This document shows positions 8,339 through 39,996 of a DNA stretch of 47,636 nucleotides, one piece after another. The notes under the pieces were generated by a model. The model was given only the letters and a program-made list of their open reading frames with translations, had not been told where the DNA came from and did not search any database. The DNA comes from an uncultured Gammaproteobacteria bacterium (GTDB lineage: Bacteria; Patescibacteriota; Microgenomatia; Daviesbacterales; UBA10151), in NCBI GenBank assembly GCA_964523515.1, contig CAZFZP010000001.1, positions 10,079 through 57,714 of the forward strand, given 5' to 3'. Numbering within the stretch: the stretch's first letter is position 1; the number at the start of each line of letters is the position of its first letter. The position numbers were made by a program, and so were the translations under genes.

Positions 8339-8353
8339 AAGCGAGTAGACTTA

Positions 8354-8992: not shown

Positions 8993-9033
8993 CTTAGGTA
9001 AATCTTACAGTCTTTCAGGATCAATTAGCAAGT

Positions 9034-17284: not shown

Positions 17285-18010
17285 TTATTTTTTAGCAATA
17301 ACCAAGATTGATGTTCCTAATGGAGGTTCTATTAACTCCTCCAGAGGTAAAACTAAAGGTGCAATTAAATTAAAAATACCGATCTTATTTTTTCCAACAA
17401 TTTTATTTTTTAAAACTCTGCCCGCTAAAAACCAGCCGATCCCACCCAAAAAGTTTACGACTCGGATTCTCACTATTTTTAATCCGCTAGAATTCAAAGA
17501 TCGCTGTAAAGATTCTTTTGTATAACGCCGGAAGTGGCCAATCGATTTGTCAATTTCGCCATATAGATCAGGATGAAACGGGACTAATAAAATTAAATGT
17601 CCGCCCGTCTTTAATAGTTTATAAATATTTATTAACGATTGGTTATCGTTTTTTATATGCTCTAAAACGTTTAGACAAACTACTGTATCAAAATGTCTAT
17701 TATTAAAAAAATACTTGGCCATCTCAATATCTCCATATCCCACCTTAACGTTTTTAACTTTTTTGGCTTGTTTTAAATTTTGTTTATCTATATCGGTACC
17801 AACAACTTTTCCATATCTAGTCAAGTCTTTGCTAAAAGTACCAATCCCACAACCAACTTCTAATATATCTCCCATTAAGAATTTTTTAAACTGTTTCAGT
17901 GTCCAGCGATTATACCAAACAGCCTGGCTCATACTCTCTAAAGTTTTATGCCCGTTATCATCCTTCATTGTTTTTGAGCAACTAGTACCAAGTGAGGTCC
18001 CCACATCCAA
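17285..18010 (-). CDS. Class I SAM-dependent methyltransferase
   Basis: Motif I ILEVGCGIGTFS, and post-I/II VVCLNVLEHI. The more likely start is ATG 17968..17966 (MKDDNGHK...), which forms an ATGA overlap with the upstream stop at 17965..17967. Confidence 0.8.
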   Translation of the reverse strand: MDVGTSLGTSCSKTMKDDNGHKTLESMSQAVWYNRWTLKQFKKFLMGDILEVGCGIGTFSKDLTRYGKVVGTDIDKQNLKQAKKVKNVKVGYGDIEMAKYFFNNRHFDTVVCLNVLEHIKNDNQSLINIYKLLKTGGHLILLVPFHPDLYGEIDKSIGHFRRYTKESLQRSLNSSGLKIVRIRVVNFLGGIGWFLAGRVLKNKIVGKNKIGIFNLIAPLVLPLEELIEPPLGTSILVIAKK

Positions 18011-18762
18011 AAAGGGTATACACCAAGCTCCCCTAGTTTTCTAAATATCCTCTGAAGTATTTTAGCATTAGACAACTCCTCATTCCAACAACTATCGGCA
18101 CAGATTATAGAGAAGCCATTATATTCTAAATAATTAGTCAGAGAACCGATATACGGTTCTACCACTGTATCCCAATCACTAATATATATCTTTTTGTTTG
18201 CCAAAGGAGTTACCTGCCTCCAACCTAAGGATCTTAACCTCACAACATATAATAGAATATCTTCTAAAAGACCTCTGATAAGTTTAAGTAGACGTGATGT
18301 GTTTCTCACAGGAGACACTCTATTTGGAGATCCATAGTTTGGAGAGATTAGAACTAAATATCCTCCCTGTCTAAGAACTCTTCTTGCTTCTAATAGCACC
18401 TTCGTCGGATTATCAAGATGCTCAAGGACGAACGCAGCATATAAAAGATCAAAAGATTCACTTTCAAAAGGGAGTGTTTCTAAGTCCCCCTGGTAAAATT
18501 TCAAATCAGGGTATCGCTCCCTAGCTATCTTAATCGCTTTATCACTTAAATCTATTCCGCACCCTGATTGTTTTTTATTAGTTACAAGATTTAATCTAGT
18601 TCCTTCTCCACATCCTAAATCTAATATGTTTTTAGCTTTTGAGGTTAATTCCCTTAAGATTTTCATGCCGGGATGAGCTAGATCAAAACTACCTTGATGA
18701 GATTGTTGGTAATAGCTTTCTTTAGACCAGACTTCTTTCGCTAACCATTCCTTGTGTTTCAT
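17965..18762 (-). CDS. Class I SAM-dependent methyltransferase
   Basis: 265 aa. Motifs: ILDLGCGEGTRL, DLSDKAIKIARE, and LYAAFVLEHLDNP. Confidence 0.8.
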   Translation of the reverse strand: MKHKEWLAKEVWSKESYYQQSHQGSFDLAHPGMKILRELTSKAKNILDLGCGEGTRLNLVTNKKQSGCGIDLSDKAIKIARERYPDLKFYQGDLETLPFESESFDLLYAAFVLEHLDNPTKVLLEARRVLRQGGYLVLISPNYGSPNRVSPVRNTSRLLKLIRGLLEDILLYVVRLRSLGWRQVTPLANKKIYISDWDTVVEPYIGSLTNYLEYNGFSIICADSCWNEELSNAKILQRIFRKLGELGVYPFWMWGPHLVLVAQKQ

Positions 18763-21040: not shown

Positions 21041-21363
21041 TTGGACTTTTGATCGTTTTCTTTTTCAGTAATTAATTGAAATACTGTCAATACTAGACAT
21101 AAAAATACATAAACCCCAACCGCTCCCGCCACCTCAACACTAAAAATGGAGATTACCATGCTAATAAACAGCAATATAAAGCCGATTATTAATGGTGTTT
21201 GATGACGAAGACGGTGAAATCGATTAAATATTATCCATATAACAAAGATGGCGATATAGATAACAGTCAACATGCTCATACTGTAGTATAGTTCCTCTAC
21301 CAAAGAGACTAATTTATCAATGATAATACTTAACATATCCCCTCCTAAGAATAAGGAATCCAA
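21037..21363 (-). CDS. Small hypothetical membrane protein (about 3 TM)
   Basis: 108-aa ORF with three hydrophobic segments and a charged C-terminus (EKENDQKSK). The annotated start overlaps the 1163-aa gene by 47 nt. Internal starts at about 21336 or 21279 are possible. The stop forms an ATGA overlap with the GT2 remnant's start (21037..21040). Confidence 0.45.
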   Translation of the reverse strand: MDSLFLGGDMLSIIIDKLVSLVEELYYSMSMLTVIYIAIFVIWIIFNRFHRLRHQTPLIIGFILLFISMVISIFSVEVAGAVGVYVFLCLVLTVFQLITEKENDQKSK

Positions 21364-24300
21364 TAGATAATATAATAGCTATAACTGATAATAATTTTCC
21401 CAGACTAAACACACCTTCTGACTCATACTCTAAAAACATTTCGTAGTCACCTTGTTTATCAATATACCAAGCGTTTGCATAGCCATTAATCAACGTATGA
21501 TCGCTTGCGTCAACTTTGACCCCCCCTATACTACCAGTTAGTTTTCCCCAAATACTGATAACATTTCTTTCTTGGTAGTAAGCATGCCAAAGAGGATTGA
21601 AGGTGGTAGATAATACCAAGAAATAAGGATCGGTAGCATTTTTTACACTAACACTGTATCTTGCTGAACTAATTTTGTTAAAACTAACTTGTGGTGGTGT
21701 TGACGTTGCTAAATTTGTCCCCACCTCTCTCAATATTACCGGATTAGAAAAGACCTTTTCTATCTTTAGATTGCGAATCCTCGAAGTAGAGTCTCTTAAA
21801 AATTTCCTGTTAAAAGAATTATCTTCACAATATCTGCGATATGCTCTTTGTACCACAGCCTTACAATCCCCATAAGGCAAGATCTTAAAAACAATATTGT
21901 GTTCCTTAGCAGATAATGTTGGATTAAAATAGGCCGAATACTTTTTCCACCCAAAGTCATAATCGCTTCGACCTAGAGCTATTCCAAATTTAGGAATCTT
22001 TTCCCCTTTTTTGTCTATTTCATCCACATCCGTGTGTATCAACATCACTGGGACATTACCTTTCTCCGCTAAATATTCAAATGAAATCTGGTAAGTATAG
22101 TTACTATCTAGTTTAGATACCGGGATCGTTTTTACTAAGGGCTTTTTATCTTGCGAGGATAAAACCAACTCCTCCGGCAACTGTTCAGCGACTAGATTAA
22201 TGAGGTTAGGTTTAAGGAAACTAACTTCATGTGTCCCTTTTTTAAAATCATAAACTCCCAATGAAATATTATTTCCCTGAGATGAATAATTCGCTTGACT
22301 GGATAAATAGGTCTTTCCATCAACATCAAATTCGAGAATTGTTACATCCCGGTAATATTTTTCCCACCTATCTTTCGAAATTAGAATCTCATATTTTGAA
22401 TCACGAGGAGTATAAAAACGATGGATAACTTCTTTGTCAGTTAGAAAAACTGATTTAACCCTTAGGTCAACAAATAATTTATCATGTTCAGAGATTAACT
22501 GTTGTATTACATCTTTAGAGACACTATTTTTTCTTAAATCCTCCAAGGCTTTTTTTTGTCCAATTAACTTATATACTATATCTTTATCTTTGGAACCACT
22601 GCTTATTAGCTCTTGTGAGACAGATTGAAAAAGAGATTTATATTCATTAACTGCTGTTAAATCCTGCGGATCATGACTCATCTCAACAACTCTTTTTCCA
22701 AGCAAGTTAACCTTAAAATACAGCTGCACACTTTGAGCCTGAAGTTGCGCCTCTATCTCTTCTTTCAGTCTGACCAAGGCATAAAAAGGGGTACCTCGAT
22801 AAACGTTGACAAAGGGAAGGTCTTCAATCGAATTTAGTGCCTCCATATTTAGATTTTCTACTCGCAAACCTTTTATTATAATCTTATTTGATAAATCCAT
22901 ATACTTATCGTGATCAGGACTTTTGGTTGTGGTAATAAAAATATCTTTTGTTTTGGGCATAGAAGAGGGTAACATGCTAATACCGTTGCCCTCAGGATCA
23001 TACAGATATGTTGGTGAGGTACTGGCAAAAATCTTAGGGTAAAAATTATCTGGCTTAATTTCAAAAATCTTCAACTTACCAAACTCAGCTGCCAGCGTAA
23101 AATGATCCTTCAGATTAGATTCAATACTGCTAAGTATTGTCGCAGGTGACTCTGTAGCCCGAGCTATATAATCGATATCATCTCTGACCATCAGATACTT
23201 TACGTTTAACATTTGAGCTAGAACCCAAAACTGGTCTGGATATCTGGCAAACAGTTCATTAATACTAGCGACCATTTCTGGAAGAAACACCTGGCCAGTG
23301 TTAAAGGATATCATGGGTTGGTTAAAAAGCGTGTTCGACAACTCAACGCCAGAAAATCCATACTCCCAGTTATACGTCATTCCTTCACCGTTAATTGGAA
23401 ATACCAAAACCCTAAATAAATTATTTTGGCTATCTAACCAATTTTGTGCGTCCTCGTAATATTTGGGTACTTTTACGTATTGACCAATATTCATATCCTC
23501 CGCTGGTTTACCACCACCAGTAAATACCAATCCGGTAACAATTGGGAACATATAAATTGGGAATATTATAATGAGGATAATTGTAATCAGAACTCTGTAA
23601 AATTTTACTCTGGCTTTTAAAAAACCAGCTACTAGATCTATCCCAAAACCAACGGGAATAGCCATTACAATCGGGAGCAATAGACCCACTTTTTCGTAAG
23701 AGTTTCTAAATACCTGCAGAGGGGTGAAAACCTGCATCAAAACTAGAGACAACTCCCCAAAGGGTGGAAGGGTACCTTTCATAAAAAACATTGTTATTAG
23801 CGATAAGACAATAAAATATACAAATAAAACATCTTTTTTAAATCGAAATAAACTAACCATAAAAGCAGTAATAAAGAAGAAGCTTAAAACTGTAAATACC
23901 GGAGTGTAATAGATCCAACCCCAAACACTACCATCACTAACGTAAAACCTGACTGGAAACAACCTAAAAACACTGAGGACTGATCCTAGATTATCACTTA
24001 TTATTTTAAATGTTTCAACGTTTCCAAATGAATCAAAGTATTTGAGACTGGTAGTAGAAGCTGCTGGAGTCAGATATGACATAAAAAGGGGTAACAACCA
24101 CCAGAGATGCACTACAAAAAAAATGATTCCAAACAATATAAAATATAGAAAAGGGTAAAAGTTAAGTTTTTCTATTCTGGATTTTAAAACATACACCAGG
24201 CTTAACAATCCAATTATTAAGAAAAATGTTTCAAATAAGGCTAGCGTAACAAAGGCATAACTAAATAAAACCGATATTAGACTTAAAATTAATAAATGTC

Positions 24301-24808
24301 CCAGGCTTCTTTTACGTAAGCCACTATCATATATCAAGATAGCCAAAGGAATAAATCCATAAAAAAACAACATTGGGTATTGCATTCTATGCAACACCGC
24401 AACATGCACAATCGGGTTTAAAATATAGAAAAGTGTTGCAGATACTCTGACCAAATAATTGTTACCCGGGATTAAAGATGTAAGCTTATGAATTGAAAGT
24501 GCTCCACAAACAAATATTAGCCAATACAAAGAAGCTTGGAGAATAAAAGCTGGAACACCTAAATTGGTAAAGAAAGTTAAGGTAATATAGAGAGGGTAGC
24601 TAGCATAACCTATCGCACTACTTGTGCCCAATGGAACATCCGACCAACTACTCTGAATATCATCTAGGAGCCTCGAGGGATTATAAAAAGGAAGCCCTGA
24701 TTCGCCTGAACCAAGTATTAACCCCTTATGAAACCAGATAACAACCAAAAGAGTTACTAGTGCCACCAAAGTTACTCTCTCTTGGAACATGTGTATTTTC
24801 CTAAACAC
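21317..24808 (-). CDS. Giant (1163 aa) membrane protein: N-terminal polytopic GT-C-like module (YfhO/AftD-like), about 700-aa extracytoplasmic region, and C-terminal TM anchor
   Basis: The first 430 aa or so contain about 13 hydrophobic segments, with an acidic loop after TM1 (GSGESGLPFYNPSRLLDD). A long hydrophilic region follows. It ends in a single helix, LLSVIAIILSIGFLILRR. This architecture resembles the YfhO and AftD/DUF3367 families as I recall them. The coding call is certain. The family assignment is tentative. Confidence 0.55.
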   Translation of the reverse strand: MFRKIHMFQERVTLVALVTLLVVIWFHKGLILGSGESGLPFYNPSRLLDDIQSSWSDVPLGTSSAIGYASYPLYITLTFFTNLGVPAFILQASLYWLIFVCGALSIHKLTSLIPGNNYLVRVSATLFYILNPIVHVAVLHRMQYPMLFFYGFIPLAILIYDSGLRKRSLGHLLILSLISVLFSYAFVTLALFETFFLIIGLLSLVYVLKSRIEKLNFYPFLYFILFGIIFFVVHLWWLLPLFMSYLTPAASTTSLKYFDSFGNVETFKIISDNLGSVLSVFRLFPVRFYVSDGSVWGWIYYTPVFTVLSFFFITAFMVSLFRFKKDVLFVYFIVLSLITMFFMKGTLPPFGELSLVLMQVFTPLQVFRNSYEKVGLLLPIVMAIPVGFGIDLVAGFLKARVKFYRVLITIILIIIFPIYMFPIVTGLVFTGGGKPAEDMNIGQYVKVPKYYEDAQNWLDSQNNLFRVLVFPINGEGMTYNWEYGFSGVELSNTLFNQPMISFNTGQVFLPEMVASINELFARYPDQFWVLAQMLNVKYLMVRDDIDYIARATESPATILSSIESNLKDHFTLAAEFGKLKIFEIKPDNFYPKIFASTSPTYLYDPEGNGISMLPSSMPKTKDIFITTTKSPDHDKYMDLSNKIIIKGLRVENLNMEALNSIEDLPFVNVYRGTPFYALVRLKEEIEAQLQAQSVQLYFKVNLLGKRVVEMSHDPQDLTAVNEYKSLFQSVSQELISSGSKDKDIVYKLIGQKKALEDLRKNSVSKDVIQQLISEHDKLFVDLRVKSVFLTDKEVIHRFYTPRDSKYEILISKDRWEKYYRDVTILEFDVDGKTYLSSQANYSSQGNNISLGVYDFKKGTHEVSFLKPNLINLVAEQLPEELVLSSQDKKPLVKTIPVSKLDSNYTYQISFEYLAEKGNVPVMLIHTDVDEIDKKGEKIPKFGIALGRSDYDFGWKKYSAYFNPTLSAKEHNIVFKILPYGDCKAVVQRAYRRYCEDNSFNRKFLRDSTSRIRNLKIEKVFSNPVILREVGTNLATSTPPQVSFNKISSARYSVSVKNATDPYFLVLSTTFNPLWHAYYQERNVISIWGKLTGSIGGVKVDASDHTLINGYANAWYIDKQGDYEMFLEYESEGVFSLGKLLSVIAIILSIGFLILRRGYVKYYH

Positions 24809-25898
24809 TATAGCTAATTACCTCCTTTTTTAATGATTCATCCCTCAGAAGAAGCGGGGTAATTTTGTTTTGGGCTTTTTTAAGGTAACGGTAGAAATCA
24901 AAGATAGATCCCTTAAAAAAAATTTTCCCAAATAAGTATTTATCCGAAACTCTTCTCACCTTAGTTTGAATTATACTTCTTTTCTCCAGAGTTTCTGGCA
25001 AATGCTTAAAACTCCAATATAGCACTTGAATCCAACCCACCATGGCTTTAGAATCTCCTTTTAAAAGCAATACCAGCGCACGCAGTGAATAAATTATCAA
25101 AAATTGAGGCAGATAAACAATTAGTGAATTTAAACTATAATTCTTAATAAAAACATTCAGCATTCGACCATAGAAAAATTCCCATTTAGTATTCTGCCTG
25201 CCCTCTTTCAAGGACCAGTGATATATCTTTGCGTTAGGAACTAGCACTATTCTAAATCCTGCTAACCAAACCCGCCAATTCATATCAAGATCATAAATTA
25301 ACGCATCAATATCCTCATCAAACATCCCAGCTATCGTAAATACCTCCTTGCGTACCACCAAACCTTCAAAACCATTAAAAGTCTCGACTGGTTTTTGATA
25401 TTTTATACCATCCTTCTTGCCAAGATCTAGAGATACTATCCAACCTGTCTCACGCATCAGATAATGTCTGTACACCTGAATTAGGTTGTGTTGATGAAAA
25501 TCATAAAATTTAGCAATAACTCCACCTACCGATCTATCCGACTTTAAAAGATATCTTACTAACTCTTTCAGCCAGTTAGGGTCAAGTGTCATGTCACAGG
25601 CGACAAATGCAACTAGATCTCCTTTACTTGTTTTGATTCCTAAATTTAGAGATTTTGTCGAACCAAGCCTGTTGGTGTTTTCGATGATTATCCACCTTTT
25701 ATCCTTACTAACTATTTTTCTAGTGATCTGTACACCGTTATCTCCGCAAGGGTCAAAAACAATAATTACTTCATAATTGGAATACCTAGTCTTCTGAAGG
25801 CTTTTTATAAGATTACCAATTAGATACTCTGACCTAAAGGCAGGAATAATAATACTCACCAGAGGATCCTTTATTTTCATAACATTAATATAAAACAA
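24801..25898 (-). CDS. Glycosyltransferase family 2 with C-terminal membrane segments
   Basis: 365 aa. Motifs: VSIIIPAF, IIVFDPCGDNG, and MFDEDIDALIYDLDMNWRVWLAGFRIVLVPNAKIYHW, followed by a hydrophobic stretch (LIVYLPQFLIIYSLRALVLLL). Paralog of 28141..29175. Confidence 0.8.
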   Translation of the reverse strand: MFYINVMKIKDPLVSIIIPAFRSEYLIGNLIKSLQKTRYSNYEVIIVFDPCGDNGVQITRKIVSKDKRWIIIENTNRLGSTKSLNLGIKTSKGDLVAFVACDMTLDPNWLKELVRYLLKSDRSVGGVIAKFYDFHQHNLIQVYRHYLMRETGWIVSLDLGKKDGIKYQKPVETFNGFEGLVVRKEVFTIAGMFDEDIDALIYDLDMNWRVWLAGFRIVLVPNAKIYHWSLKEGRQNTKWEFFYGRMLNVFIKNYSLNSLIVYLPQFLIIYSLRALVLLLKGDSKAMVGWIQVLYWSFKHLPETLEKRSIIQTKVRRVSDKYLFGKIFFKGSIFDFYRYLKKAQNKITPLLLRDESLKKEVISYSV

Positions 25899-25913: not shown

Positions 25914-27098
25914 CTACTGATTTGTAAAAACATCTATTATTGTCTTTATTTCTTTTTTAGTTAAATCAGGATTATTACCAACATAAAGACCTTGATTATG
26001 AATTAATTTAGCATTTGGAGTACTTGAGATATTTTGAAAATGAGGCAGGTATTTATTAAAAAAAGGTTGCACAGTCATATCACCACCTACGATTGGGCGA
26101 ATTTCAATTTTTCCTTGACAGTTCTTTATTAATTTTTCAAGTCCGCTTTTAGAACGGCAAATCACCGGGAAAGCAAAATTAGAGATAATATCTAGCTGAG
26201 CAAACCGGAGAGGGTAATATAGATCAGTTAATTTATATACTTCGTCTGCAATCATTTGAAAATTCCTTTTCCTTTTTTCTATTATTTCATCCAAATATTT
26301 AAGCTGAGTATTTCCTAAAAATGCAGTTATTTCAGTTGGGCGTAGATTATATCCCAGATCATAAAATGTATACATTGCATAAAACGACGAATCTACCCGA
26401 TAATTTTTTCTGATAACAGATTGCTCATCTAATCCTATGTTTCTATCCCAACCATGTGCCCGAACCAATCTTAGCATGATAGCTAGTTGATCACTGTCCG
26501 TACAGACTGCTCCCCCTTCTATGGTTGACAGGTGGTGACCGACATAAAATGAAAATGTACTAGCTAAGCCAAAATTGCCAAGTTTTTTACCTTTATAAAC
26601 AGATCCCAGTCCCTCACAGTTGTCTTCGATTAAAATTATTTTTCTTTTTTTACATATTTTCACAATTTCATCAATATCATCACAAAATCCCAGAAGGTTA
26701 GTTAAAAAGAATAATTTAAGCGGATACTTTTCCAGAATATCAGTAAATTTCCGACTGGAAACATTTAATGTATCTAGTTCCACATCCACCGGTACAACAT
26801 TTAGCCCTAACTCAATTAGAGGCATCAGATTAGTTGCCCAAGTAAGAGCCGAAAAGGCTGAGTGATCGCCCTTTTGAATTTGTCCTAAATTTAGTAAAGC
26901 TTGGATAAGGCCCAAATTAGCAGAGCTACCGCTATTAAAAAATATGCAATGTTTCCTATTTTGATATTTAGCAAATCTCTCTTCAAATTTTTTACACTCT
27001 ACCCCAAAACTTAACTGCTTCGCCGAAGTAATAAATTTACTAAGGTTTCTTTTTGTTTCCATCTCTTTATAAAATGTTGTCTTAATTAATTTAATCAT
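25914..27098 (-). CDS. colD: DegT/ColD-family PLP/PMP enzyme with active-site Lys replaced by His: candidate GDP-4-keto-6-deoxy-D-mannose 3-dehydratase (ColD-like)
   Basis: 394 aa. Motifs: FNSGSSANL, IEDNCEGLG, and FSFYVGHHLSTIEGG. Where the true aminotransferase in this window (42627..43736) has FSFYPTKNMTTGEGG, this protein has His (residue 188 by my count, codon CAC at 26535..26537). This is the hallmark of ColD/E1 3-dehydratases. It lies 4 bp downstream of gmd. Confidence 0.7.
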   Translation of the reverse strand: MIKLIKTTFYKEMETKRNLSKFITSAKQLSFGVECKKFEERFAKYQNRKHCIFFNSGSSANLGLIQALLNLGQIQKGDHSAFSALTWATNLMPLIELGLNVVPVDVELDTLNVSSRKFTDILEKYPLKLFFLTNLLGFCDDIDEIVKICKKRKIILIEDNCEGLGSVYKGKKLGNFGLASTFSFYVGHHLSTIEGGAVCTDSDQLAIMLRLVRAHGWDRNIGLDEQSVIRKNYRVDSSFYAMYTFYDLGYNLRPTEITAFLGNTQLKYLDEIIEKRKRNFQMIADEVYKLTDLYYPLRFAQLDIISNFAFPVICRSKSGLEKLIKNCQGKIEIRPIVGGDMTVQPFFNKYLPHFQNISSTPNAKLIHNQGLYVGNNPDLTKKEIKTIIDVFTNQ

Positions 27099-27102
27099 TG
27101 TA

Positions 27103-28119
27103 TTATTTTATCTGTTTATTTACTCCGGATTGTTTAAGGTCAGAGTTGAGCATAATCCTAACTAACTCTTTGAATTTTACTCTTGGTTCCCAACCTAATA
27201 TCTCTTTGGCTTTTTTGGCATCACCCATTAGTACATCAACCTCTGTTGGACGAAAATATCTAGGATCAATTTTAACGTAGCGCTTCCAGTTAAGACCCAC
27301 CAAACTAAAAGCCAATTCGACAAACTCACGAACTGTATGCGTCTCACCGGTAGCAATTACAAAATCATCTGGTTTGTTTTGTTGAAGCATCATCCAAGCA
27401 GCTTGCATATATTCTTTAGCAAAACCCCAATCCCTTTTCGAATCCAAATTTCCCAAATAGAGTTTATCTTGTTTCCCAGACATTATATTTGCGATTGCCT
27501 TAGTGACTTTTCTTGTTACAAAGGTTTCTCCCCGACGAGGTGATTCATGATTGAATAATATGCCTGACACAGCAAAGATGTTATAACTTTCGCGATAATT
27601 TACTGTCATATGGTGGCCCATTAATTTGGCTATTCCATAAGGACTCCGTGGATTAAATGCAGTTTGTTCATTTTGGGGTGCAGGTGAGCTACCAAACATC
27701 TCACTACTTGAGGCCTGGTAATATTTTGTTTTCAAGTCTAATATTCTAATCGCTTCAAGTACCCGTAAGGCACCCAACCCAACTGAGTTAACGGTGTATT
27801 CAGGAATATCAAAACTAACTCTTACATGACTTTGAGCAGCTAAATTATATATCTCATCTGGATGAACCTTTTCCAAAAGTGTGATGATTGATCCTGTGTC
27901 AGTTATATCACCAAAATGCAACAAAAGTTTCGCACGAGACTCATGAGGATCTTTGAATAAATGTTCAATCCTATTTGTATTGAATGTACTTGCTCGGCGG
28001 ATGACGCCATGAACTTCGTATCCCTCACGAAGAAGTAGCTCTGCTAAATAAGAGCCATCTTGTCCAGTTATTCCAGTTATTAAAGCAACTTTTTTTTTAT
28101 TTTTCTTAAGTTTATTCAT
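27103..28119 (-). CDS. gmd: GDP-mannose 4,6-dehydratase
   Basis: 338 aa, near-colinear with E. coli Gmd as I remember it. Matching segments: [108 protein letters not shown], and [11 protein letters not shown]. Confidence 0.93.
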
Positions 28120-28140: not shown

Positions 28141-29175
28141 CTAATAACCTGCTTTCATTAGGTTGGCAGTAGTTTTAGCTCCTTGAAAATATAATCTATA
28201 GAGATATACCAGATTAGTGGAGATCATGATTTTACTAAAAATATCACAATCTCTAGCTCTTCGATATTTTTGCACTTTTTCTCTTTCTACAAGTGTATCA
28301 GATAGGTGAACAACGCTCCATCCTAATCCCATTAAAACTCCAGCAATCCCCATTAAGCTATTTCTGGTTAATAAAATATTTAAAGCGCCTACCATACTAA
28401 ATAGTATTGAAGTGGGAAGAAACTTTAATGTATTAGAAATTTCATAATTTTTTATCATCATTCGATACGAGTTTTTGGAAAGATGAAAATAAAGTTTATG
28501 ATTTGGATTATGAACTTTAAGATAATGATAGACCTTGGCATTAGGAGCTAGCATAATCCTAAATCCTGCGATCCATACCCGCCAGGAAAAATCCAGATCG
28601 TCACAATAGTGGAAAAGATTTTCGTCAAATCCTCCGATTACCTTAGTTACACTTTTTCTTACTGCAAGTGATGCTCCCAATGAAATGATCTCCATTGGAA
28701 ATTTATATTTTTTACTATCCTTCTCTCCTCTTCCAATGGTCACACCGAATCCAGTAAACGGAATTAGTTTCATACCAGCTTGTTGGATAGTTTTCCTATT
28801 TTTTATATCGAACATTTTACATTGGGCAGCACCAATACTATTATCAGATAAAAAAACTTCTGATAAACCTACTATCCATTTCTTATCCACCTCTGTGTCA
28901 TTATCCAAAAAAACCAAAATATCTCCTGTAGATTTTTTAATCGCTTTATTCCTACTTTTGACTAACCCAATATTTTGATTATTTCTAATGAAAATTAAAT
29001 CTTGTGCATTTTTATACTTATTGATTATTTGCAAACTTCCATCAGTCGAGCCATCATCAACTATAATCACCTCAAATTTTGGATAAATTGTTTTAAAGAC
29101 AGAAGATAGACATTTTTCTAGATATCGTTCGCCATTATATGTCGCGATAATTATTGAAAACTTAAGTTTTTTCAT
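28141..29175 (-). CDS. Glycosyltransferase family 2 with C-terminal membrane segments
   Basis: 344 aa. Motifs: FSIIIATYNG, IIVDDGSTDGS, LDNDT, and FDENLFHYCDDLDFSWRVWIAGFRIMLAPNAKVYHY. Paralog of 24801..25898. Confidence 0.8.
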   Translation of the reverse strand: MKKLKFSIIIATYNGERYLEKCLSSVFKTIYPKFEVIIVDDGSTDGSLQIINKYKNAQDLIFIRNNQNIGLVKSRNKAIKKSTGDILVFLDNDTEVDKKWIVGLSEVFLSDNSIGAAQCKMFDIKNRKTIQQAGMKLIPFTGFGVTIGRGEKDSKKYKFPMEIISLGASLAVRKSVTKVIGGFDENLFHYCDDLDFSWRVWIAGFRIMLAPNAKVYHYLKVHNPNHKLYFHLSKNSYRMMIKNYEISNTLKFLPTSILFSMVGALNILLTRNSLMGIAGVLMGLGWSVVHLSDTLVEREKVQKYRRARDCDIFSKIMISTNLVYLYRLYFQGAKTTANLMKAGY

Positions 29176-30853
29176 TGATATCTCTCCAGGCTATTAATAA
29201 AAGAGCTGCTGGATAAAAAACCCTTACAAATGGTGTAGATAAATACGATACTAGAAACAACGCAGGATTTAAAAATTTGGGAGAAATATCTTTTAGCAAA
29301 CCTGGCTTATAGATTAATCTAAATCCATGTCCCTGGACACTATACCCCATTGATTGAAAATCAGCAGGTTTCCAACCAGAAAGATGAACATCATACTTTC
29401 CCGCTTTACGGTGGTTAAATTGAAAGAAGCCATTGATAGTAGCCAAAATCACTCTTTTTTTTGCCAATTTTTCAAGTTTTGTAATTAATTTTAAGGCATC
29501 ACTTTTACTTAAATGTTCTATTGTTTGAGAACATAAAACCACATCGAATTTTTCCTTTGCAAATAATTTCTTAGTAATATCACCTTTAATAAAATTTTTA
29601 AAAACTGGTATTTTACCCACTAATGTTCGGCAATTGGACGCAACTTGCAGATCTTTATTATTAATATCTACTCCTGTAACAAAATACTCACCTCGGTAGT
29701 TAACCCAGCTCATCAAATGCCCATCTCCACATCCTACATCAAGTACTGTAGATCCAGTTGGAATTAATTTTTTTATTTCAGCTGGATATGTCCAAGGTAA
29801 AGTATACTGGATTTTTTTTATCGTGAACTTGTCTAATACTACCGCTTTGATCTTACCAATCAAATCAGTTTTGGAAAACAACGAAATAATCTCTTTATCA
29901 TATTTTACACCAATATCCTGCCTAATCCTTTGTCTAGCTGTGATTAGTCTAGGAAAACTTTTAATTACCCAAATAACAGACATTGGTCTGGTCAACGCCA
30001 AGAAAAGTTTTTGATTAATCAGCATATCCCAAACAAATGTAAATAAATAGATGATCAAAGTTATTGGTAAAGATTTTAAAAGCAGTACCAGCGGGTAATT
30101 TCTAATCATAGTAGACAGACGATTTTTATTAAAATGCCACCTAACTTTAACCTTTACCATCACTGAAGAATCTGTAACAGCTCTTTTGTGAAAACAAACC
30201 GCATCTTTAATTCTCATTATCTTAAATCCCATTTGCCTAAATCTTAAAGAGTGATCCATGTCCTCATACCCGATTCCATACTCAGGATCATACAACCCAA
30301 CTTTTAGCAAAACTGATTTTTTTATCAAACAAGCAGCACCCGTAGCAGATAAGATCTCCTCATCTTTGTTGTACTGACCTATATCTGTAGTTTGATAACC
30401 TAAGGTTACTGGATTTCCATAAATATCTATACTCTCACCAGCACTATCAATTATTTTGTGATCCAAAGCCCATAACAACTTTCCTTGGGCTATTGCTAGT
30501 TTCGGATATTTACTAAACGCTGCCAATAATTTATGTAAGTACTTATCCTTAAGCTCAATATCGTTATTAAAAAGCGCAATATATTCTCCCCGAGATTGTT
30601 GAAAAGCTAAGTTCACTCCTTGCGAATACATATTTATAGGATTTTTTATAATCTTAAATCTGTGGTCATCTCCAAAAATCCTACCTGCAACTTTTACACT
30701 ATCGTCCGTTGAAGCGTTGTCTACTAGTAGAAATTCGAAGTTAGAATAGTCAACTTTTTTAAAATTTTGTAAACATTCTTGTAGAGTGTTCAATTTGGCA
30801 CCATTATAATTAGAGACAATGATTGATATTAACGGATACTTTTTAGTTTTCAA
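29162..30853 (-). CDS. Fusion protein: N-terminal GT2, central TM segments, C-terminal class I SAM methyltransferase
   Basis: 563 aa. The GT2 part has ISIIVSNYNG, LVDNASTDDS, FNND, and GYEDMDHSLRFRQMGFKI. The hydrophobic segment is YPLVLLLKSLPITLIIYLFTFVW. The methyltransferase part has VLDVGCGDGHLMS, GVDINNKDL, and VVLCSQTIEHL. Confidence 0.75.
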   Translation of the reverse strand: MKTKKYPLISIIVSNYNGAKLNTLQECLQNFKKVDYSNFEFLLVDNASTDDSVKVAGRIFGDDHRFKIIKNPINMYSQGVNLAFQQSRGEYIALFNNDIELKDKYLHKLLAAFSKYPKLAIAQGKLLWALDHKIIDSAGESIDIYGNPVTLGYQTTDIGQYNKDEEILSATGAACLIKKSVLLKVGLYDPEYGIGYEDMDHSLRFRQMGFKIMRIKDAVCFHKRAVTDSSVMVKVKVRWHFNKNRLSTMIRNYPLVLLLKSLPITLIIYLFTFVWDMLINQKLFLALTRPMSVIWVIKSFPRLITARQRIRQDIGVKYDKEIISLFSKTDLIGKIKAVVLDKFTIKKIQYTLPWTYPAEIKKLIPTGSTVLDVGCGDGHLMSWVNYRGEYFVTGVDINNKDLQVASNCRTLVGKIPVFKNFIKGDITKKLFAKEKFDVVLCSQTIEHLSKSDALKLITKLEKLAKKRVILATINGFFQFNHRKAGKYDVHLSGWKPADFQSMGYSVQGHGFRLIYKPGLLKDISPKFLNPALFLVSYLSTPFVRVFYPAALLLIAWRDINEKT

Positions 30854-31773
30854 TTTAGATCCTTATTCGTTTTTAGGATGTTACCATATCTCCTAGGAGA
30901 TGTAACTCCTTCCATATATCCTCTACAAAACTGCATAAAACCTGTAAAATTTTTTTCCTTAAAACAAATAACCGCAAAGTATATTAAATAGACCGGAGAA
31001 AAAAATAAAAAAATATAGAAATTCTTTCCGAAATCCCTCATAAAAATAACCCTGTTGCGCCCTATCCAAAAACTACGACTTATTAATCTAACGCGCTCGT
31101 CCTTTTTTAAAGGTGAGATGTTGTGATATGCAATGGCATTTGGGCTGTACAAAGTGACAAAACCATTTTTTTTAGCTCTGAAACAAAAGTCAGTGTCCTC
31201 GTAGGTAGCAAAATAGCGATTATCAAATCTTGTGACCTTTTTTAAGACAGCTCGTTTAACTAGTATTGCTGCGGGAGCTACCTGAACTTCCTCAATCTTT
31301 TCATATTGCCCCACATCCCTACCTCCCCTAAATAAAATCTGTCCTGTCCAAAGATTGATATTAGTTCCAGCTGCCCAAATTCTTTTCCGGTCTCTATTGT
31401 AGTATATTTTCGGTGTCGTGATTCCAACAGCCTTATTCGACTTTACAGCTGCCACTAAATTTTCCAACATTTTTTTATCAGCAACCATATCATGATCAAA
31501 AAATAATAAGTAATCGCTCCTTTTACTAGATTGGTCTATGCCAATATTTCTACCTCCTGTTACACCAAGATTGTAATTTAATGTCATAAATTTCACCTGG
31601 GGAAAATCTTTTGTTATTTTCTTGGTTGTATTATCAGTTGAGGCGTTATTTACAACTATTATCTCCAAAGGCTTTAAACTTTGCTGATAAATAGATTTGA
31701 TACAAGCCTGTAGAGTGTTCCAGCTATTGTATGTAGGAATAATTACTGATACAAGCCGGCCCGAGGAACTCAT
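30850..31773 (-). CDS. Glycosyltransferase family 2
   Basis: 307 aa. Motifs: VSVIIPTYNS, VVNNASTDNT, FFDHD, and YEDTDFCFRAKKNGF. Confidence 0.85.
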   Translation of the reverse strand: MSSSGRLVSVIIPTYNSWNTLQACIKSIYQQSLKPLEIIVVNNASTDNTTKKITKDFPQVKFMTLNYNLGVTGGRNIGIDQSSKRSDYLLFFDHDMVADKKMLENLVAAVKSNKAVGITTPKIYYNRDRKRIWAAGTNINLWTGQILFRGGRDVGQYEKIEEVQVAPAAILVKRAVLKKVTRFDNRYFATYEDTDFCFRAKKNGFVTLYSPNAIAYHNISPLKKDERVRLISRSFWIGRNRVIFMRDFGKNFYIFLFFSPVYLIYFAVICFKEKNFTGFMQFCRGYMEGVTSPRRYGNILKTNKDLN

Positions 31774-33608
31774 TCTTCATTCAGTAGCAATTTTTGTTTT
31801 ATTTTTTCTGTTACATTTAGCAAAGACTGTTGCTCCATCCTAATTCCATAAAGATTTACAATAGACTTGGGATTCTCCTTAATGTATTTAACAAGATCCG
31901 GGTAATTTTCATAATACAAACCTGTACCCATATGCGGATCCCAGCCATACTTTAAACTTGTTCTAAACAGAAATCCAAAATACAGTGTTTCAAATAAAGT
32001 TTCTTTATCAAGTTGATTTTCTGCAGATTCAAACCATAAGATAGGTGGGTTAGATTTTGAAAACTCAATTTTATTAGGTACAATTTCTGTAAATTGCTGC
32101 CATATATTATTAGCCAAAAATCGGTTATGAGTTAAGGCCTTATTGTCAAAAAATGCTTTAGTATTAACCGCATGACTGAAGATCATCAACAGTACCAGAC
32201 AAAGAGTGGTAACCCGCAGCAATTTACTCTGAAAATGATAGCCCAAAGTTAATATTCCTGCTAAAAACAACGGAACGCTGGGACCAGTTGTAATTAAATA
32301 ACGGTGGTAAGTCCCCAAAACGGGTCCACCATTCATAAACAAAGGGAGTAATAAAAAGGAGAATGACCAAAGCAGAGTAATTAAAAATAAATCTTTTATG
32401 TGAGTGGATAAGCCTTTTGTAAGAACTAAAAATGTACAGATGATCATAAAATATCCACCAAATAAAGTAAGTGCCAAATTTATCCATGATGTAAAATTTA
32501 ATGGTCCTTGTTTTAAGACAAGGTAAACAACTATAGTCCATAACAAACCGAAAGAAAAAAGGGACAAAAATTTGGGTGTCAGATGAGTAGCAACATCCTT
32601 TCTTTTAGAAAAAACACCCGTTATCACCCAAGTAATCCCGCCAAATATAAACAGACTGGGAATTATTACGGAACGAAATTGACTGCTCCCCAAAAATGAA
32701 AAAGATTTAGGAAAGTTTAAATTAGACCAAGTCATATCAGGTAATAGAACGACGCCTAGATTAGTGGTCGGAGAAAGCAAAAAATCGAATTTAGATAGGT
32801 TAATCTGATACCAAAATGCTTCCAACCCAACGCCAATGATGTATTTTTGTGAATAATCTGACTCCATTTGGCCAAGTAAAAATTTATCAACCAGAATGAA
32901 AATAGCGAAACCTACAAACCAGAAAATTAAATTTCTGAGGCTATTCTTGGATCTTAAAGTAATTAGCTTATAAAGACTCCAGGCCAAAATTACGATTACA
33001 AACCCACTAGTCCTCATAGTTGCATACCAAATCCCCAGACAAGCTAGAAAAAAAGACACTGACCAGGTCTTAATTTTAAAATTTGTGGGTAAATCAAGCC
33101 CAATATAGATACTTAAAGTTATAAAAATTAGACCAATATAGGCATACATATTAAAGACCCAGTGGGTTGCTTCAACACCAGCAAAAGAAACCGCTAACAG
33201 TAGTGAGCAAATAAGTGCAACAAATCCATTTCTGCACAGTTTATTGATAAGTAAATACCAAACAATCACTGAAATAAATTTTAGGAGGACTGCAATTGAG
33301 TAATAAGCGAAGGCATTTAACCCAAACAGGTCTTTAATAATATCAAATGTTAAGGTTGCTCCACCTAAGCTAGTGCGCATATTTCTCCAAAAATCCTCGT
33401 TAAACATAGCGTTGCCATATGCCTTAATATACGCCCATGCATACTGCCAAGTATCACCTTGAAGCTCCAATGAAAACACACCCCAATATATATATAAAAT
33501 GAGGGCTAGGTTTAAAAACATGACAAGACAAATAAATTTAAAATTCAAGGATAATAACTTCAGCATATTATCTATTCTTATTTTCTCTATTTTGCACAAG
33601 CATAGCAA
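31770..33608 (-). CDS. Polytopic membrane protein of unknown family, GT-C-like architecture (member 1 of a 3-paralog set)
   Basis: 612 aa with at least 12 hydrophobic segments plus a C-terminal soluble domain of about 130 aa. The motif ELQGDTWQYAW follows TM1. The likely true start is the internal MLKLLSL (about 33566), just after the upstream stop. Confidence 0.5.
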   Translation of the reverse strand: MLCLCKIEKIRIDNMLKLLSLNFKFICLVMFLNLALILYIYWGVFSLELQGDTWQYAWAYIKAYGNAMFNEDFWRNMRTSLGGATLTFDIIKDLFGLNAFAYYSIAVLLKFISVIVWYLLINKLCRNGFVALICSLLLAVSFAGVEATHWVFNMYAYIGLIFITLSIYIGLDLPTNFKIKTWSVSFFLACLGIWYATMRTSGFVIVILAWSLYKLITLRSKNSLRNLIFWFVGFAIFILVDKFLLGQMESDYSQKYIIGVGLEAFWYQINLSKFDFLLSPTTNLGVVLLPDMTWSNLNFPKSFSFLGSSQFRSVIIPSLFIFGGITWVITGVFSKRKDVATHLTPKFLSLFSFGLLWTIVVYLVLKQGPLNFTSWINLALTLFGGYFMIICTFLVLTKGLSTHIKDLFLITLLWSFSFLLLPLFMNGGPVLGTYHRYLITTGPSVPLFLAGILTLGYHFQSKLLRVTTLCLVLLMIFSHAVNTKAFFDNKALTHNRFLANNIWQQFTEIVPNKIEFSKSNPPILWFESAENQLDKETLFETLYFGFLFRTSLKYGWDPHMGTGLYYENYPDLVKYIKENPKSIVNLYGIRMEQQSLLNVTEKIKQKLLLNEE

Positions 33609-34149
33609 TATGAGAAAATGGATACCAGAAAGGGGCTTTCACAGATTTTATGGAATATATATACTCCATCTTCTCAAATAAATTAGCCCATTCCTCACTA
33701 TCTCTAAAGGTTAGTGGTGTTTCTAAACCATGATAATGAAGATTGTTTAAAATTATATCAAATACTTTACCAAAAAAAGTTGGTTCAACTTCAAAAATTA
33801 ATAGTTGTCTAGATACTCTAAGACCTTCTTTGATAATATTTATTTGGTAGGATTTACTTGTATGGTGCAAGACATCATTTAATATAGCCTTATCAAAGGA
33901 TTTATCTTTAAAGGGCAGTTTACCTTGTCTTGGAATCTTATGAAACGGCAGATCAACTGTTAAATAGTTTACAATGTCACATCCAATGATAGTAGATCTA
34001 AAGCTTTTTTTAATCATGATACTGGTTATCCCAGTACCACAACCAATATCTAATATGTTGTCTCTCTTTTTAATCCAACCCTTAAAGGATTTAATAATCA
34101 GTTTGCTGCGAAATGGAGAAGTAAATTGAGCAACCTGTAAGATATTCAT
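33568..34149 (-). CDS. Class I SAM-dependent methyltransferase
   Basis: 193 aa. Motifs: ILDIGCGTGITS, GCDIVN, and KAILNDVLHH. Confidence 0.75.
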   Translation of the reverse strand: MNILQVAQFTSPFRSKLIIKSFKGWIKKRDNILDIGCGTGITSIMIKKSFRSTIIGCDIVNYLTVDLPFHKIPRQGKLPFKDKSFDKAILNDVLHHTSKSYQINIIKEGLRVSRQLLIFEVEPTFFGKVFDIILNNLHYHGLETPLTFRDSEEWANLFEKMEYIYSIKSVKAPFWYPFSHIAMLVQNRENKNR

Positions 34150-35101: not shown

Positions 35102-37054
35102 TTAATTTTGTATTTCATCTAATGTTTGTTGAGTAATATCAATCACGTCCTTATTTTCCAATCTGAAAGCATAAAATGAGCTAATTGGATAAAAAGTCAT
35201 TACTCCATTTTTTCCATATAGAGTGAAGTTTGGATCTTTGCGATCCAACACACAATAACTTGGGAGTATAAATCCTTTCTGTCCTCCTTTAGTTTGGTAA
35301 GCTCTGCTAAGTTGTTCTTTCCGAATAATAAGGGCTGCGCATTTACTATGGAGCTCTCTATCTGGCATATAAATCCAATATGTAAAGCCATTGACAAATC
35401 CCTGTTCATAAAATTCTCCATTTTTAGGGTCTGTGGATGTATCAATAAAGAATGCAGCTGGCTTATCAAAATCATATCCTAATTTACTCAATAACTCTCG
35501 TGCTTGCTGCAACATTATATTATTTTCAGAAAAACTTCTTCCGTGTTTAAGCTTGCCACCGTAGTAATCTTTTATAAGTTCCCTATTCATTTGGAAATAA
35601 CTTAGATAAAAAGCAAAGATCATAACTATCCCAATCACGGTATATTTTTTGTTATCCAGGAATAGTAACTTCCAAAAAACTTTACTTAAAATACTAGCCA
35701 ATGCTAAGTAAATTCCCAATGAGGGAATCATTAAGTAACGGTGTATGGTCGAAAAACTAGTTGATTTATCGGTTAAAATCACAGTTGCAATGATAAAGAT
35801 TAAAGAAAAAGTTGGCCCAATCCATAAGGCAAACAGGTGAGGATCCTTTTTTTGTTCCTCAAGCCATTCCAAAAAAGCTACAAAAGACAGAGTTAAGATA
35901 TATACCCCAATCATGATATTAAAAATTTCAGAAGGATGAATATTAGGCCTTAAGACATGATTTATAACTTGAGGATGTAAAAAAGGCAGGTAAGAAATAA
36001 AAATAAATGGAAATACGGGAATAAATACCCTTTTGAAGAACCTTTTGGGCCTTTTGGACAAGACGGCAGAAAACAAGCTTGTCAAAGCAATAAAAACAAC
36101 ACTGGGTACAATCAATATATATGTAATATAGCTGCCGTAATTACCATATTTGAAATTAACAAATAACTTACTTGTAACTGATGTAGGGAAAGAGGGCGTA
36201 CCTAATCCAATTATTGGCAATGCAGCTTTAATCCAATCCCCTTTTATTAGTGGTTCAATTATTGGCATACTTTCTAATGGATAAAATGATACCAGCTGGC
36301 GGTTCATAAATAAGATAATAAGCAGCACAGGCAAATAAATTACTGTTAGTCTAAACAAAGATAAGCGAAACTGATGGATAGATTTATGAGTAGCAAGAAT
36401 AAATGTCTCAATTAACATAGGAACTAGCAGTATTGGATAAGCTCGTATCGGGGAAAAAAACATTGACCCTAAAAAAGGAATTGGCAGTAAAAATGCCCAT
36501 TTTAAATCCAATTTATTAGATTTTACCGAAAGATAGTAGATGACTAAAAACATATTGATCATTAATAACGCCCAATAATCACCGGCTAGAATTACCCATT
36601 CCAAAGAGGCTGTAGCAGTAGCACTAATGGCAAATAAAATTGTTGTAAAAAGCGATAGAATTTTATCTTTAAATATTACTAAAACCATAGGAAAAATCGA
36701 AAATGTCGCCAAAGTCTTAATAAGAATATTGGTTAGTTGAAAAGCTGAAATATTACCTCCCCATAATCGTTCTAAGAAATAAATATGATACATTTCATGC
36801 AGAAACCCATAGCCACCACCTCTCAGGTTATCAGTAATATTTATTAGGTGATTAGTAGTCAAAGTTTTTGACCAAAGCAGTACCTTCCAATCATCACCGT
36901 GCAAACCCATGCCTAATAATATTTCTAAAGTACTGTAATTAAGAATAAACAAAAATATGAAAAACACAGATGAAAAGATTAATATATTTTGGTAATTACT
37001 ACCCAATAATAAATATTGTTTCTTAATCCACGTTTTTGACATGTAATTTATCAC
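35102..37054 (-). CDS. Polytopic membrane protein of unknown family, GT-C-like architecture (member 2 of the paralog set)
   Basis: 650 aa with about 13 hydrophobic segments plus a C-terminal soluble domain of about 170 aa. The motif GLHGDDWKVLLW follows TM1. The segment KTLATFSIFP is shared with 43761..45308. Its start overlaps the stop of the upstream DPM1-like GT2 by 4 nt. Confidence 0.5.
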   Translation of the reverse strand: MINYMSKTWIKKQYLLLGSNYQNILIFSSVFFIFLFILNYSTLEILLGMGLHGDDWKVLLWSKTLTTNHLINITDNLRGGGYGFLHEMYHIYFLERLWGGNISAFQLTNILIKTLATFSIFPMVLVIFKDKILSLFTTILFAISATATASLEWVILAGDYWALLMINMFLVIYYLSVKSNKLDLKWAFLLPIPFLGSMFFSPIRAYPILLVPMLIETFILATHKSIHQFRLSLFRLTVIYLPVLLIILFMNRQLVSFYPLESMPIIEPLIKGDWIKAALPIIGLGTPSFPTSVTSKLFVNFKYGNYGSYITYILIVPSVVFIALTSLFSAVLSKRPKRFFKRVFIPVFPFIFISYLPFLHPQVINHVLRPNIHPSEIFNIMIGVYILTLSFVAFLEWLEEQKKDPHLFALWIGPTFSLIFIIATVILTDKSTSFSTIHRYLMIPSLGIYLALASILSKVFWKLLFLDNKKYTVIGIVMIFAFYLSYFQMNRELIKDYYGGKLKHGRSFSENNIMLQQARELLSKLGYDFDKPAAFFIDTSTDPKNGEFYEQGFVNGFTYWIYMPDRELHSKCAALIIRKEQLSRAYQTKGGQKGFILPSYCVLDRKDPNFTLYGKNGVMTFYPISSFYAFRLENKDVIDITQQTLDEIQN

Positions 37055-37773
37055 TCAGATTTCTTAAATATCATTTCCAACCACATCTGGTATCTAAGTA
37101 AAAGAAGCTGCTGTACTCCTTTAATAGCCCGCTTAACTATCCCGCTACGGGCAGCTCGTAACTCCGATACTTCAATAGGTATTTCGGTAATGCTTAATCC
37201 TTTTTGGTGGGCGCGAATGATTAACTCCGTATCAAAGATTTCACTTCCATAGTGACATTTTTTTATAATGGGAACTGTACTGATTTTTTTTATTACCTTA
37301 ATACCATGAGTGTCGCTAACTGGACAATCAAAAAGAATTCTAGTTAATATGTGAAATATATTCCCGCCAATTTTTCTGATTAATGATCTACGATCTTGGC
37401 TCAGAGAGTTCATCTTCGATGCAACAACAATTGAATGTTTATCAAGTACTGCTATGGCATCATTGAGAAATTTTAAATCAATCCAATCGACCGAAAAATT
37501 TACTATTATTTTTTTAGTAGATTTTAGGTATCCATACCTCAATGCTGCACCATAACTGGGTCTTTCAAGATGAAAATATTTTATCTTTTTATTTGACTGA
37601 GATAATTGCTGTCCTATTCTCGCTGATTCATCAGAACTACCATTTTCTATAATAAGAATTTCAAAATTAGAAGTAAGCGTAGCAAGTTGTTTTTGTAATT
37701 TTAAGATTACTTTTTGAAGTATCTCTGCCTCATTGTAAACAGGTATGACAATCGAGATTGGATGCTGAATCAT
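37051..37773 (-). CDS. GT2, DPM1/GtrB/ArnC-like candidate polyprenol-phosphate sugar synthase
   Basis: 240 aa. Motifs: ISIVIPVYNEAEIL, IIENGSSDES, PSYGAALRYG, RSLIRKIGGNIFHILTRILF..VSDTHGIKV, FDTELIIRA, and ITEIPIEV. Confidence 0.65.
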   Translation of the reverse strand: MIQHPISIVIPVYNEAEILQKVILKLQKQLATLTSNFEILIIENGSSDESARIGQQLSQSNKKIKYFHLERPSYGAALRYGYLKSTKKIIVNFSVDWIDLKFLNDAIAVLDKHSIVVASKMNSLSQDRRSLIRKIGGNIFHILTRILFDCPVSDTHGIKVIKKISTVPIIKKCHYGSEIFDTELIIRAHQKGLSITEIPIEVSELRAARSGIVKRAIKGVQQLLLLRYQMWLEMIFKKSE

Positions 37774-37783
37774 TTTAAAACAA

Positions 37784-39995: not shown

Positions 39996-39996
39996 C

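Follow-up and report, generated by a model that had tools for sequence, protein, structure and literature searches.

So far, colitose-type 3,6-dideoxyhexoses have been described mainly from Gram-negative bacteria, where they are determinants of the O-antigen. The enzymes closest to the one treated here share the DegT fold and differ at the active site. ColD of E. coli, the E1 enzymes (AscC/DdhC/RfbH; 3BCX, 3BB8) and SpnQ have His in place of the Schiff-base Lys and deoxygenate a 4-keto-6-deoxy sugar at C3 in a pyridoxamine 5′-phosphate (PMP)-dependent reaction. According to the review PMC8987622, a [2Fe-2S] cluster is bound by E1 and SpnQ but not by ColD, which regenerates PMP using glutamate. 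GDP-perosamine synthase (PerA/RfbE; 3BN1, 3DR4) has the same fold and the Schiff-base Lys, acts on GDP-4-keto-6-deoxy-D-mannose, and adjoins gmd in E. coli O157. Here we analyzed a stretch of 47,636 nucleotides (the window) from contig CAZFZP010000001.1 of an uncultured groundwater bacterium, Candidatus Daviesbacteria, which contains gmd next to a gene for a ColD-like protein. Genes immediately to the left of the window on this contig match, at full identity, proteins of Candidatus Daviesbacteria metagenome-assembled genomes of the RIFCSP series. The pair sits in a roughly 60-kb cell-surface glycan locus of this member of the Microgenomates, within the candidate phyla radiation (CPR)/Patescibacteria. 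We consider it likely that the two genes form a gmd-colD operon making GDP-4-keto-3,6-dideoxy-D-mannose, the precursor of colitose.

Both open reading frames (ORFs) are on the minus strand at the coordinates given in the table, and the gmd stop codon (TAA, 27105-27103) lies four nucleotides from the ATG of the ColD-like gene at 27098. No terminator-like site was found between the two genes, and we infer that they are co-transcribed. Chance ORFs are ruled out in both cases, with 529.7 bits to TIGR01472 (cut-off 415) for Gmd and 198.6 bits to PF01041 (cut-off 19.8) for the DegT protein. Gmd thus passes an equivalog model; in addition, it scores 460.7 bits against PF16363, is 53-56% identical to the Gmd proteins of E. 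coli O157 and O111, and displays the catalytic S/T-E, YxxxK and NHESPRRG motifs as SSSEMFG, YGIAK and NHESPRRG. Judged from its sequence, it is a true Gmd. An earlier note on this DNA had claimed both a Gmd at 27103..28119 and a DegT-family gene 4 bp downstream of it, and our reading agrees on both.

In the ColD-like protein, the position of the Schiff-base Lys is occupied by His188, the first His of “GHH” in the active-site motif FSFYVGHHLSTIEGG. This residue aligns with His188 of ColD in HMMER alignments to the ColD crystal sequences, where its place within “SHH” is fixed by the mutant PDB entries H188K, H188N and S187N/H188K. A separate MAFFT alignment displayed His at this position in 34/34 family members and in E. 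coli ColD, and Lys in 10/10 Lys-type aminotransferases. Neither HMMER nor MAFFT aligned an alternative Lys to the Schiff-base column of the ColD-like protein. The replacement of Lys by His put forward in the earlier note is consequently confirmed at the level of the codon and by two alignments, as is the Lys-bearing aminotransferase that it had named from the same window (FSFYPTKNMTTGEGG), which clusters with PerA-type enzymes. The HH-containing motif F[ST]x[FYW]xxHH…[ED]GG was matched in 114/120 homologues.

Sequence and structure comparisons both placed ColD first. The top PDB matches of the window protein were the ColD entries 2gms, 3b8x, 2r0t and 3gr9 (201 bits, E 2e-58 for 2gms), followed by E1 (155 bits), a putative NDP-sugar 3-dehydratase (111 bits) and perosamine synthase (96 bits). 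An AlphaFold2 model (predicted local distance difference test 85, predicted template modeling score 0.87) returned ColD chains at Foldseek ranks 1-11, with template modeling (TM) scores of 0.77-0.84 and 32% identity; fold scores are similar across DegT enzymes, and this comparison therefore adds a rank order but little discrimination. Reference sequences were taken from annotated E. coli genomes (ColD and ColC of O111, PerA and Fcl of O157) and, for Yersinia E1, from the PDB alignment. In a neighbor-joining tree with 200 bootstraps, the family grouped with E. coli ColD in 99.5% of replicates and this clade with E1 in 95.5%, and every Lys-type aminotransferase fell outside. The window protein is 31.7% identical to ColD, 30.9% to E1 and 24.7% to PerA, and it does not group with the PerA/RfbE-type aminotransferases, which was the phylogenetic check that the earlier note had proposed. 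With ColD as top match, the well-supported clade and His188, that note's assignment to the ColD/E1-type dehydratases is favored by our results.

Conserved residues point in the same direction. Among 120 family members, 143 positions are conserved at 97% or more; of these, 17 are common to ColD only and 5 to E1 only, and 11 “dehydratase signature” residues are common to the family, ColD and E1. The ColD-only residues include W87, N134, N160, E162, A214-H215-x-W217-x-R219-N220 and E332. R219 and R331 (ColD numbering), the phosphate-binding Arg residues of ColD, are invariant in the family. The window protein has in common with ColD the fold, the length (394 versus 388 amino acids), the His188 column, the lack of an Fe-S motif, the EDNCE segment with the equivalent of Asp159, the AHGWxRN segment and R331/E329, as well as the linkage to gmd and, in relatives of the window protein, to a ColC-like gene; ColD is its best match in sequence and structure and its sister in the tree. 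It differs from ColD in overall sequence (∼32% identity), in having Gly for Ser187 before the catalytic His, and in seven extra near-invariant Cys residues. Moreover, its host belongs to the CPR and is not a Gram-negative bacterium with a lipopolysaccharide (LPS) O-antigen, and its locus in the window has no colC.

According to the proposed mechanism, Gmd would convert GDP-D-mannose to GDP-4-keto-6-deoxy-D-mannose, the predicted substrate of the ColD-type enzyme. The latter, acting independently of an Fe-S cluster, would form a PMP ketimine at C4 of the sugar; His188 would take the C4′ proton, and the 3-OH would leave. Release and hydrolysis of the enamine would yield GDP-4-keto-3,6-dideoxy-D-mannose and ammonia, and L-glutamate would re-aminate pyridoxal 5′-phosphate (PLP) to PMP. 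In many relatives, a ColC-like epimerase/reductase would then complete GDP-L-colitose. The chemistry proposed for the window enzyme matches the description of ColD in PMC8987622.

Over 7,000 database proteins are related to the ColD-like protein at E ≤ 1e-20, other DegT proteins certainly among them, and thousands of homologues span 99-100% of its length. The best 120 of these are full length and 64-69% identical. The family is very large and tightly conserved in Patescibacteria. We examined 33 related loci, with one genome per species and with their ORFs clustered (loci are given below by L numbers). Those with a named source come from Levybacteria, Daviesbacteria, Woesebacteria and Saccharibacteria, and several other metagenome-assembled genomes are recorded under names such as “uncultured Gammaproteobacteria” or Limnocylindrales. 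All 33 are glycan loci with flippase, glycosyltransferase family 2 (GT2) and GT4 genes. The earlier note had called a 3,6-dideoxyhexose in this AT-rich locus notable; the host is a CPR bacterium, in which the enzyme family is very common and not exceptional.

The commonest specific partner of the ColD-like gene is a cluster of Fcl/ColC-like short-chain dehydrogenases/reductases (SDRs), found within 8 kb in 15/33 loci. This cluster best matches the GDP-L-fucose synthase family model and, in the PDB, GDP-fucose synthases and GDP-mannose 3,5-epimerases, and it shares 31-51% identity with ColC and Fcl of E. coli. The Cys109/His179 epimerase pair is kept, as in ColC, in the form SxCxY[PA] and SHVIP. 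By a strict motif count, which is an undercount (the L029 protein, for example, has SSACVYA), both catalytic motifs are present in the SDR of 12 loci, and in nine of these loci it adjoins the ColD-like gene. Counterparts of ColC (WbdJ/ColB, GDP-L-colitose synthase) and Fcl (GDP-L-fucose synthase) thus adjoin the ColD-like gene in relatives, and there is none in this window or its flanks. Full gene sets were found in L031 (gmd-x-colD-colC) and L032 (colC-colD-gmd). A reverse search from a Daviesbacteria ColC-like protein, in which few hits carry organism names, led to a widely sampled homologue from another organism (P0233). In its locus, a CPR-like glycan locus (L059), a His-type DegT gene (4680..6008) overlaps the start of the ColC-like SDR gene (6001..6972); the DegT protein (442 amino acids, motif YIAHIVTTG) is 28% identical to the window protein and may represent an additional 3-dehydratase clade. 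Taken together, the Fcl/ColC-like partner, the full sets and the reverse search argue that the family would act on a GDP-sugar and that many relatives would make GDP-colitose or a close analogue.

Several observations weigh against our preferred reading, a gmd-colD operon making the colitose precursor. Only 4/33 loci (L008, L016, L031 and L032) have a gmd gene (at least 54% identical) within 8 kb of the ColD-like gene, and L012 has a divergent Gmd-like gene directly downstream of it; GDP specificity across the family consequently rests mainly on the Fcl-like partner. The identity to characterised ColD (∼32%) nearly equals that to E1 (31%), and the tree is a simple neighbor-joining tree with one ColD and two E1-type sequences (Yersinia E1 and an orthologue in L023). 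No ColD-specific NCBIfam model was matched, the best being RfbH at 212 bits, below its cut-off. Finally, tblastn revealed no ColC/Fcl orthologue or remnant in ∼68 kb, made up of the window, the next 8.9 kb on its right (covered by L040, which spans 10 kb upstream of the gene 45305..46495) and the next 11.2 kb on its left (L041). With RecO, GlyRS, RsmH and PBP, the left side lies outside the glycan locus.

The earlier note had also remarked that a ColC was not obvious near the pair, in agreement with this result, and had offered the SDRs at 37784..38737 and 39997..40926 as candidates; both are poor ones, and neither is an orthologue of ColC or Fcl. With five ColC/Fcl-type queries, only the first of these matched (25-29% identity), and E. 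coli ColC as query gave no match in the window at E 1e-5. The SDR at 37784..38737 is GalE-like, reaches only 63.5 bits with the Fcl model, and carries TGSVY and GGVIP at the positions of SSCMY and SHMIP in ColC (SxCxY and SHxIP in Fcl/ColC); it lacks the Cys/His pair as well as the dehydratase acid/base motif. The SDR at 39997..40926 lacks both of these too, and is the partner of a sugar 3-C-methyltransferase. This pair is kept in the metagenomic loci L045, L046 and L047, where neither gmd nor a ColD-like gene occurs within 10 kb, and the pairing is kept in the short contig L057 as far as its sequence extends. Since the two genes are paired in loci without gmd or a ColD-like gene, the simplest reading is that they belong to a separate branched-sugar module. 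For the same reason, the idea that the ColD product feeds the 3-C-methyltransferase to give a branched 3,6-dideoxy sugar is unsupported. More distant relatives of the methyltransferase pair with a UXS-like SDR (SSEIYG, YDESKR). No manB or manC was found among the window ORFs scanned.

The ColD product may instead be finished by a ColC elsewhere in the genome, by a non-orthologous reductase, or by transamination. Because the locus has no ColC-type 5-epimerase/4-reductase, an end product of the D-series or an amino sugar is conceivable: reduction of GDP-4-keto-3,6-dideoxy-D-mannose with no epimerisation could give a GDP-linked tyvelose-type sugar, and its transamination a 3-deoxyperosamine-type sugar. 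A second feature that sets the protein apart is its Cys content. All eight Cys residues (C35, C51, C139, C149, C161, C199, C314 and C327) are at least 97% conserved in the 120 homologues, and C35, C139, C149 and C161 persist even in the L032 protein, which is 52% identical; of these residues, E. coli ColD shares only C161. They may play a structural, redox or metal role, and the four clade-invariant residues might form a metal or redox site; if true, this would define a third mechanistic class of sugar 3-dehydratase. That the sugar of this locus is a non-colitose 3,6-dideoxyhexose or derivative and that, separately, the Cys site marks such a third class is a joint reading that we find doubtful.

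It is quite improbable that the window protein performs ColD chemistry on another nucleotide sugar, such as the product of the 4,6-dehydratase-like SDR of some relatives. Besides the low identity to ColD, this would be in line with the minority of related loci that have gmd nearby and with a non-Gmd SDR whose best model is CDP-glucose 4,6-dehydratase (151 bits, below cut-off); the gene for this SDR directly precedes the ColD-like gene in L006, L010 and L014 and is found 1-3 kb upstream of it in L002 and L020. Here, though, Gmd is only four nucleotides away and is the sole adjoining hexose 4,6-dehydratase in the window, and the commonest partner among the relatives belongs to the GDP-fucose synthase/GDP-mannose 3,5-epimerase group, whose members all use GDP-sugars. 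The family-wide invariance of the phosphate-binding residues R219 and R331 also speaks against this rival.

An E1/SpnQ-type 3-dehydratase, with a [2Fe-2S] cluster and an external reductase and acting on a CDP- or dTDP-4-keto-6-deoxyhexose, is very improbable. Its case consists of the JGI label “E1” for family members, of RfbH being the best NCBIfam model, of the presence in some related loci, at a distance of 5-6 kb, of genes for a glucose-1-phosphate cytidylyltransferase and a CDP-glucose 4,6-dehydratase-like protein, and of the four invariant Cys residues. The RfbH equivalog model NF011936, however, gives 212.5 bits, far under its cut-off of 423. E1 (437 amino acids) binds its cluster through C193, C251, C253 and C261 and needs E3, whereas the window protein is without three of these four Cys: the C-X57-C-X-C-X7-C motif, which the earlier note had suggested looking for, is absent, and the AHGWxRN segment falls where E1 has C251, C253 and C261. 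In these three columns the family has R/L/I and ColD R/L/M, and in the C193 column both the family and ColD have Cys. No E3-type/ferredoxin-reductase-like gene occurs among the annotated neighbor clusters of the 33 loci. Moreover, L023 carries a true E1 orthologue (5581..6810; 499 bits to 3bcx, versus 155 to E1 for the window protein) with the CxC...C motif, 1.2 kb from the ColD-like gene (8001..9176), so the ColD-type and E1-type proteins are distinct lineages in these organisms. The grouping with ColD in the tree and the adjoining genes, gmd here and GDP-specific Fcl-like genes elsewhere, also speak against an E1.

We think it just as improbable that the protein is mainly a sugar 4-aminotransferase or other non-dehydratase, or that its 4-keto product undergoes transamination in place of reduction, giving a 3-deoxyperosamine-type sugar: the 3-dehydratases are closely related to aminotransferases and SpnQ can transaminate (PMC8987622), GDP-perosamine synthase has been crystallized with bound GDP-3-deoxyperosamine (PDB 3dr7), and the locus has Lys-type aminotransferases and N-acetyltransferases but no ColC, yet the catalytic Lys is gone and His is present in every family member examined, the aminotransferases of the locus belong to separate modules together with 3-dehydrogenase-type oxidoreductases, the usual partner in relatives is a reductase/epimerase and not an aminotransferase, and GDP-perosamine synthase is 25% identical and outside the dehydratase clade.

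CPR cells are tiny and are thought to live attached to hosts. The surface glycans of CPR/Patescibacteria have hardly been characterised, and these bacteria are not known to make LPS. No paper linking colitose or dideoxyhexoses with CPR was found in the literature searched. The abundance of the ColD-type family in Levybacteria, Daviesbacteria, Woesebacteria and Saccharibacteria, often together with a ColC-like partner, predicts that colitose-type 3,6-dideoxyhexoses are common as CPR surface sugars. What is new is a divergent clade (32% identity) in a lineage for which such sugars are undescribed; the kind of enzyme is known, and no new mechanism is added. Public annotation routinely and systematically mislabels ColD-type proteins: relatives of the window protein are named “DegT... 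aminotransferase [Patescibacteria group bacterium]” by NCBI and “CDP-4-dehydro-6-deoxyglucose reductase, E1” by JGI. A rule combining His versus Lys with the Fe-S motif would fix thousands of database entries. In RefSeq/PGAP, ColD of E. coli O111 itself (L043, 12474..13640) is labelled only “DegT/DnrJ/EryC1/StrS family aminotransferase”, and ColC of the same strain “NAD-dependent epimerase/dehydratase family protein”.

Table. Features of the window and their coordinates (position 1 is the first letter of the 47,636-nucleotide stretch; aa, amino acids; nt, nucleotides).
Feature	Position	Strand	Remarks
Gmd	27103..28119	-	338 aa; TIGR01472, PF16363, motifs
ColD-type PMP-dependent 3-dehydratase, DegT fold (predicted)	25914..27098	-	394 aa
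Intergenic spacer, gmd stop to ColD-like ATG	27099..27102	-	4 nt, “taca”; sequence reading
Active-site motif FSFYVGHHLSTIEGG	26511..26555	-	contains His188 (26535..26537) in Schiff-base Lys position
Lys-type DegT aminotransferase, internal comparator	42552..43736	+	PF01041 438.5 bits; Lys in catalytic column; motif FSFYPTKNMTTGEGG
GT2 glycosyltransferase	24801..25898	-	PF00535 83.6 bits; 15 nt downstream of ColD-like gene
GalE-like SDR	37784..38737	-	317 aa; best PDB match UDP-glucose 4-epimerase 4zrm, 200 bits
Sugar 3-C-methyltransferase	38727..39995	-	422 aa; MtmC 313 bits, TcaB9 232 bits
Divergent SDR	39997..40926	-	309 aa; directly upstream of sugar 3-C-methyltransferase
Remaining GT-C proteins and large ORFs	4024..5463, 13455..14864, 12083..13504, 31770..33608, 35102..37054, 43761..45308

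The GT2 gene downstream of the ColD-like gene belongs to a loose cluster of six window GT2s (c5), members of which neighbor the ColD-like gene, directly or at a short distance, in several related loci such as L017, L027 and L033; its product may tentatively be regarded as a candidate transferase for the deoxysugar. After this GT2 gene, the second gene downstream from the ColD-like one encodes an AftD-like GT-C membrane protein of 1163 amino acids (21317..24808, minus strand). Polytopic glycosyltransferase-like proteins of this kind abound in the locus, with two further GT-C proteins of the PMT_2 type and four large ORFs (473-650 amino acids) without a Pfam match.

In the block 37051..40926 (minus strand), the genes for the 309-residue SDR, the 3-C-methyltransferase, the 317-residue GalE-like SDR and a GT2 are translationally coupled, which suggests a branched-chain (C-methyl) sugar pathway that lacks its own canonical 4,6-dehydratase. 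On the plus strand, the only genes of any size lie at 41126..43736 and encode an oxidoreductase, a hexapeptide acetyltransferase and the Lys-type DegT aminotransferase. The oxidoreductase is UDP-GlcNAc 3-dehydrogenase-like (292 bits, below the cut-off of 450), and the three genes are predicted from their products to form a WbpB/WbpD/WbpE-like 3-acetamido sugar module. A second set, of oxidoreductase, aminotransferase and formyltransferase, is found just past the right end of the window.

A 563-residue fusion protein (29162..30853, minus strand) joins an N-terminal GT2 to a C-terminal class I S-adenosylmethionine-dependent methyltransferase, and there are three more stand-alone methyltransferases (33568..34149, 17285..18010 and 17965..18762); together these suggest methylated glycans. 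The minus strand holds 38/45 window ORFs of at least 120 amino acids, guanine-plus-cytosine (GC) content is 32-38%, and GC skew is negative in every 2-kb bin. The strand bias and the skew are consistent with a single long co-oriented array of glycan genes on one replichore.

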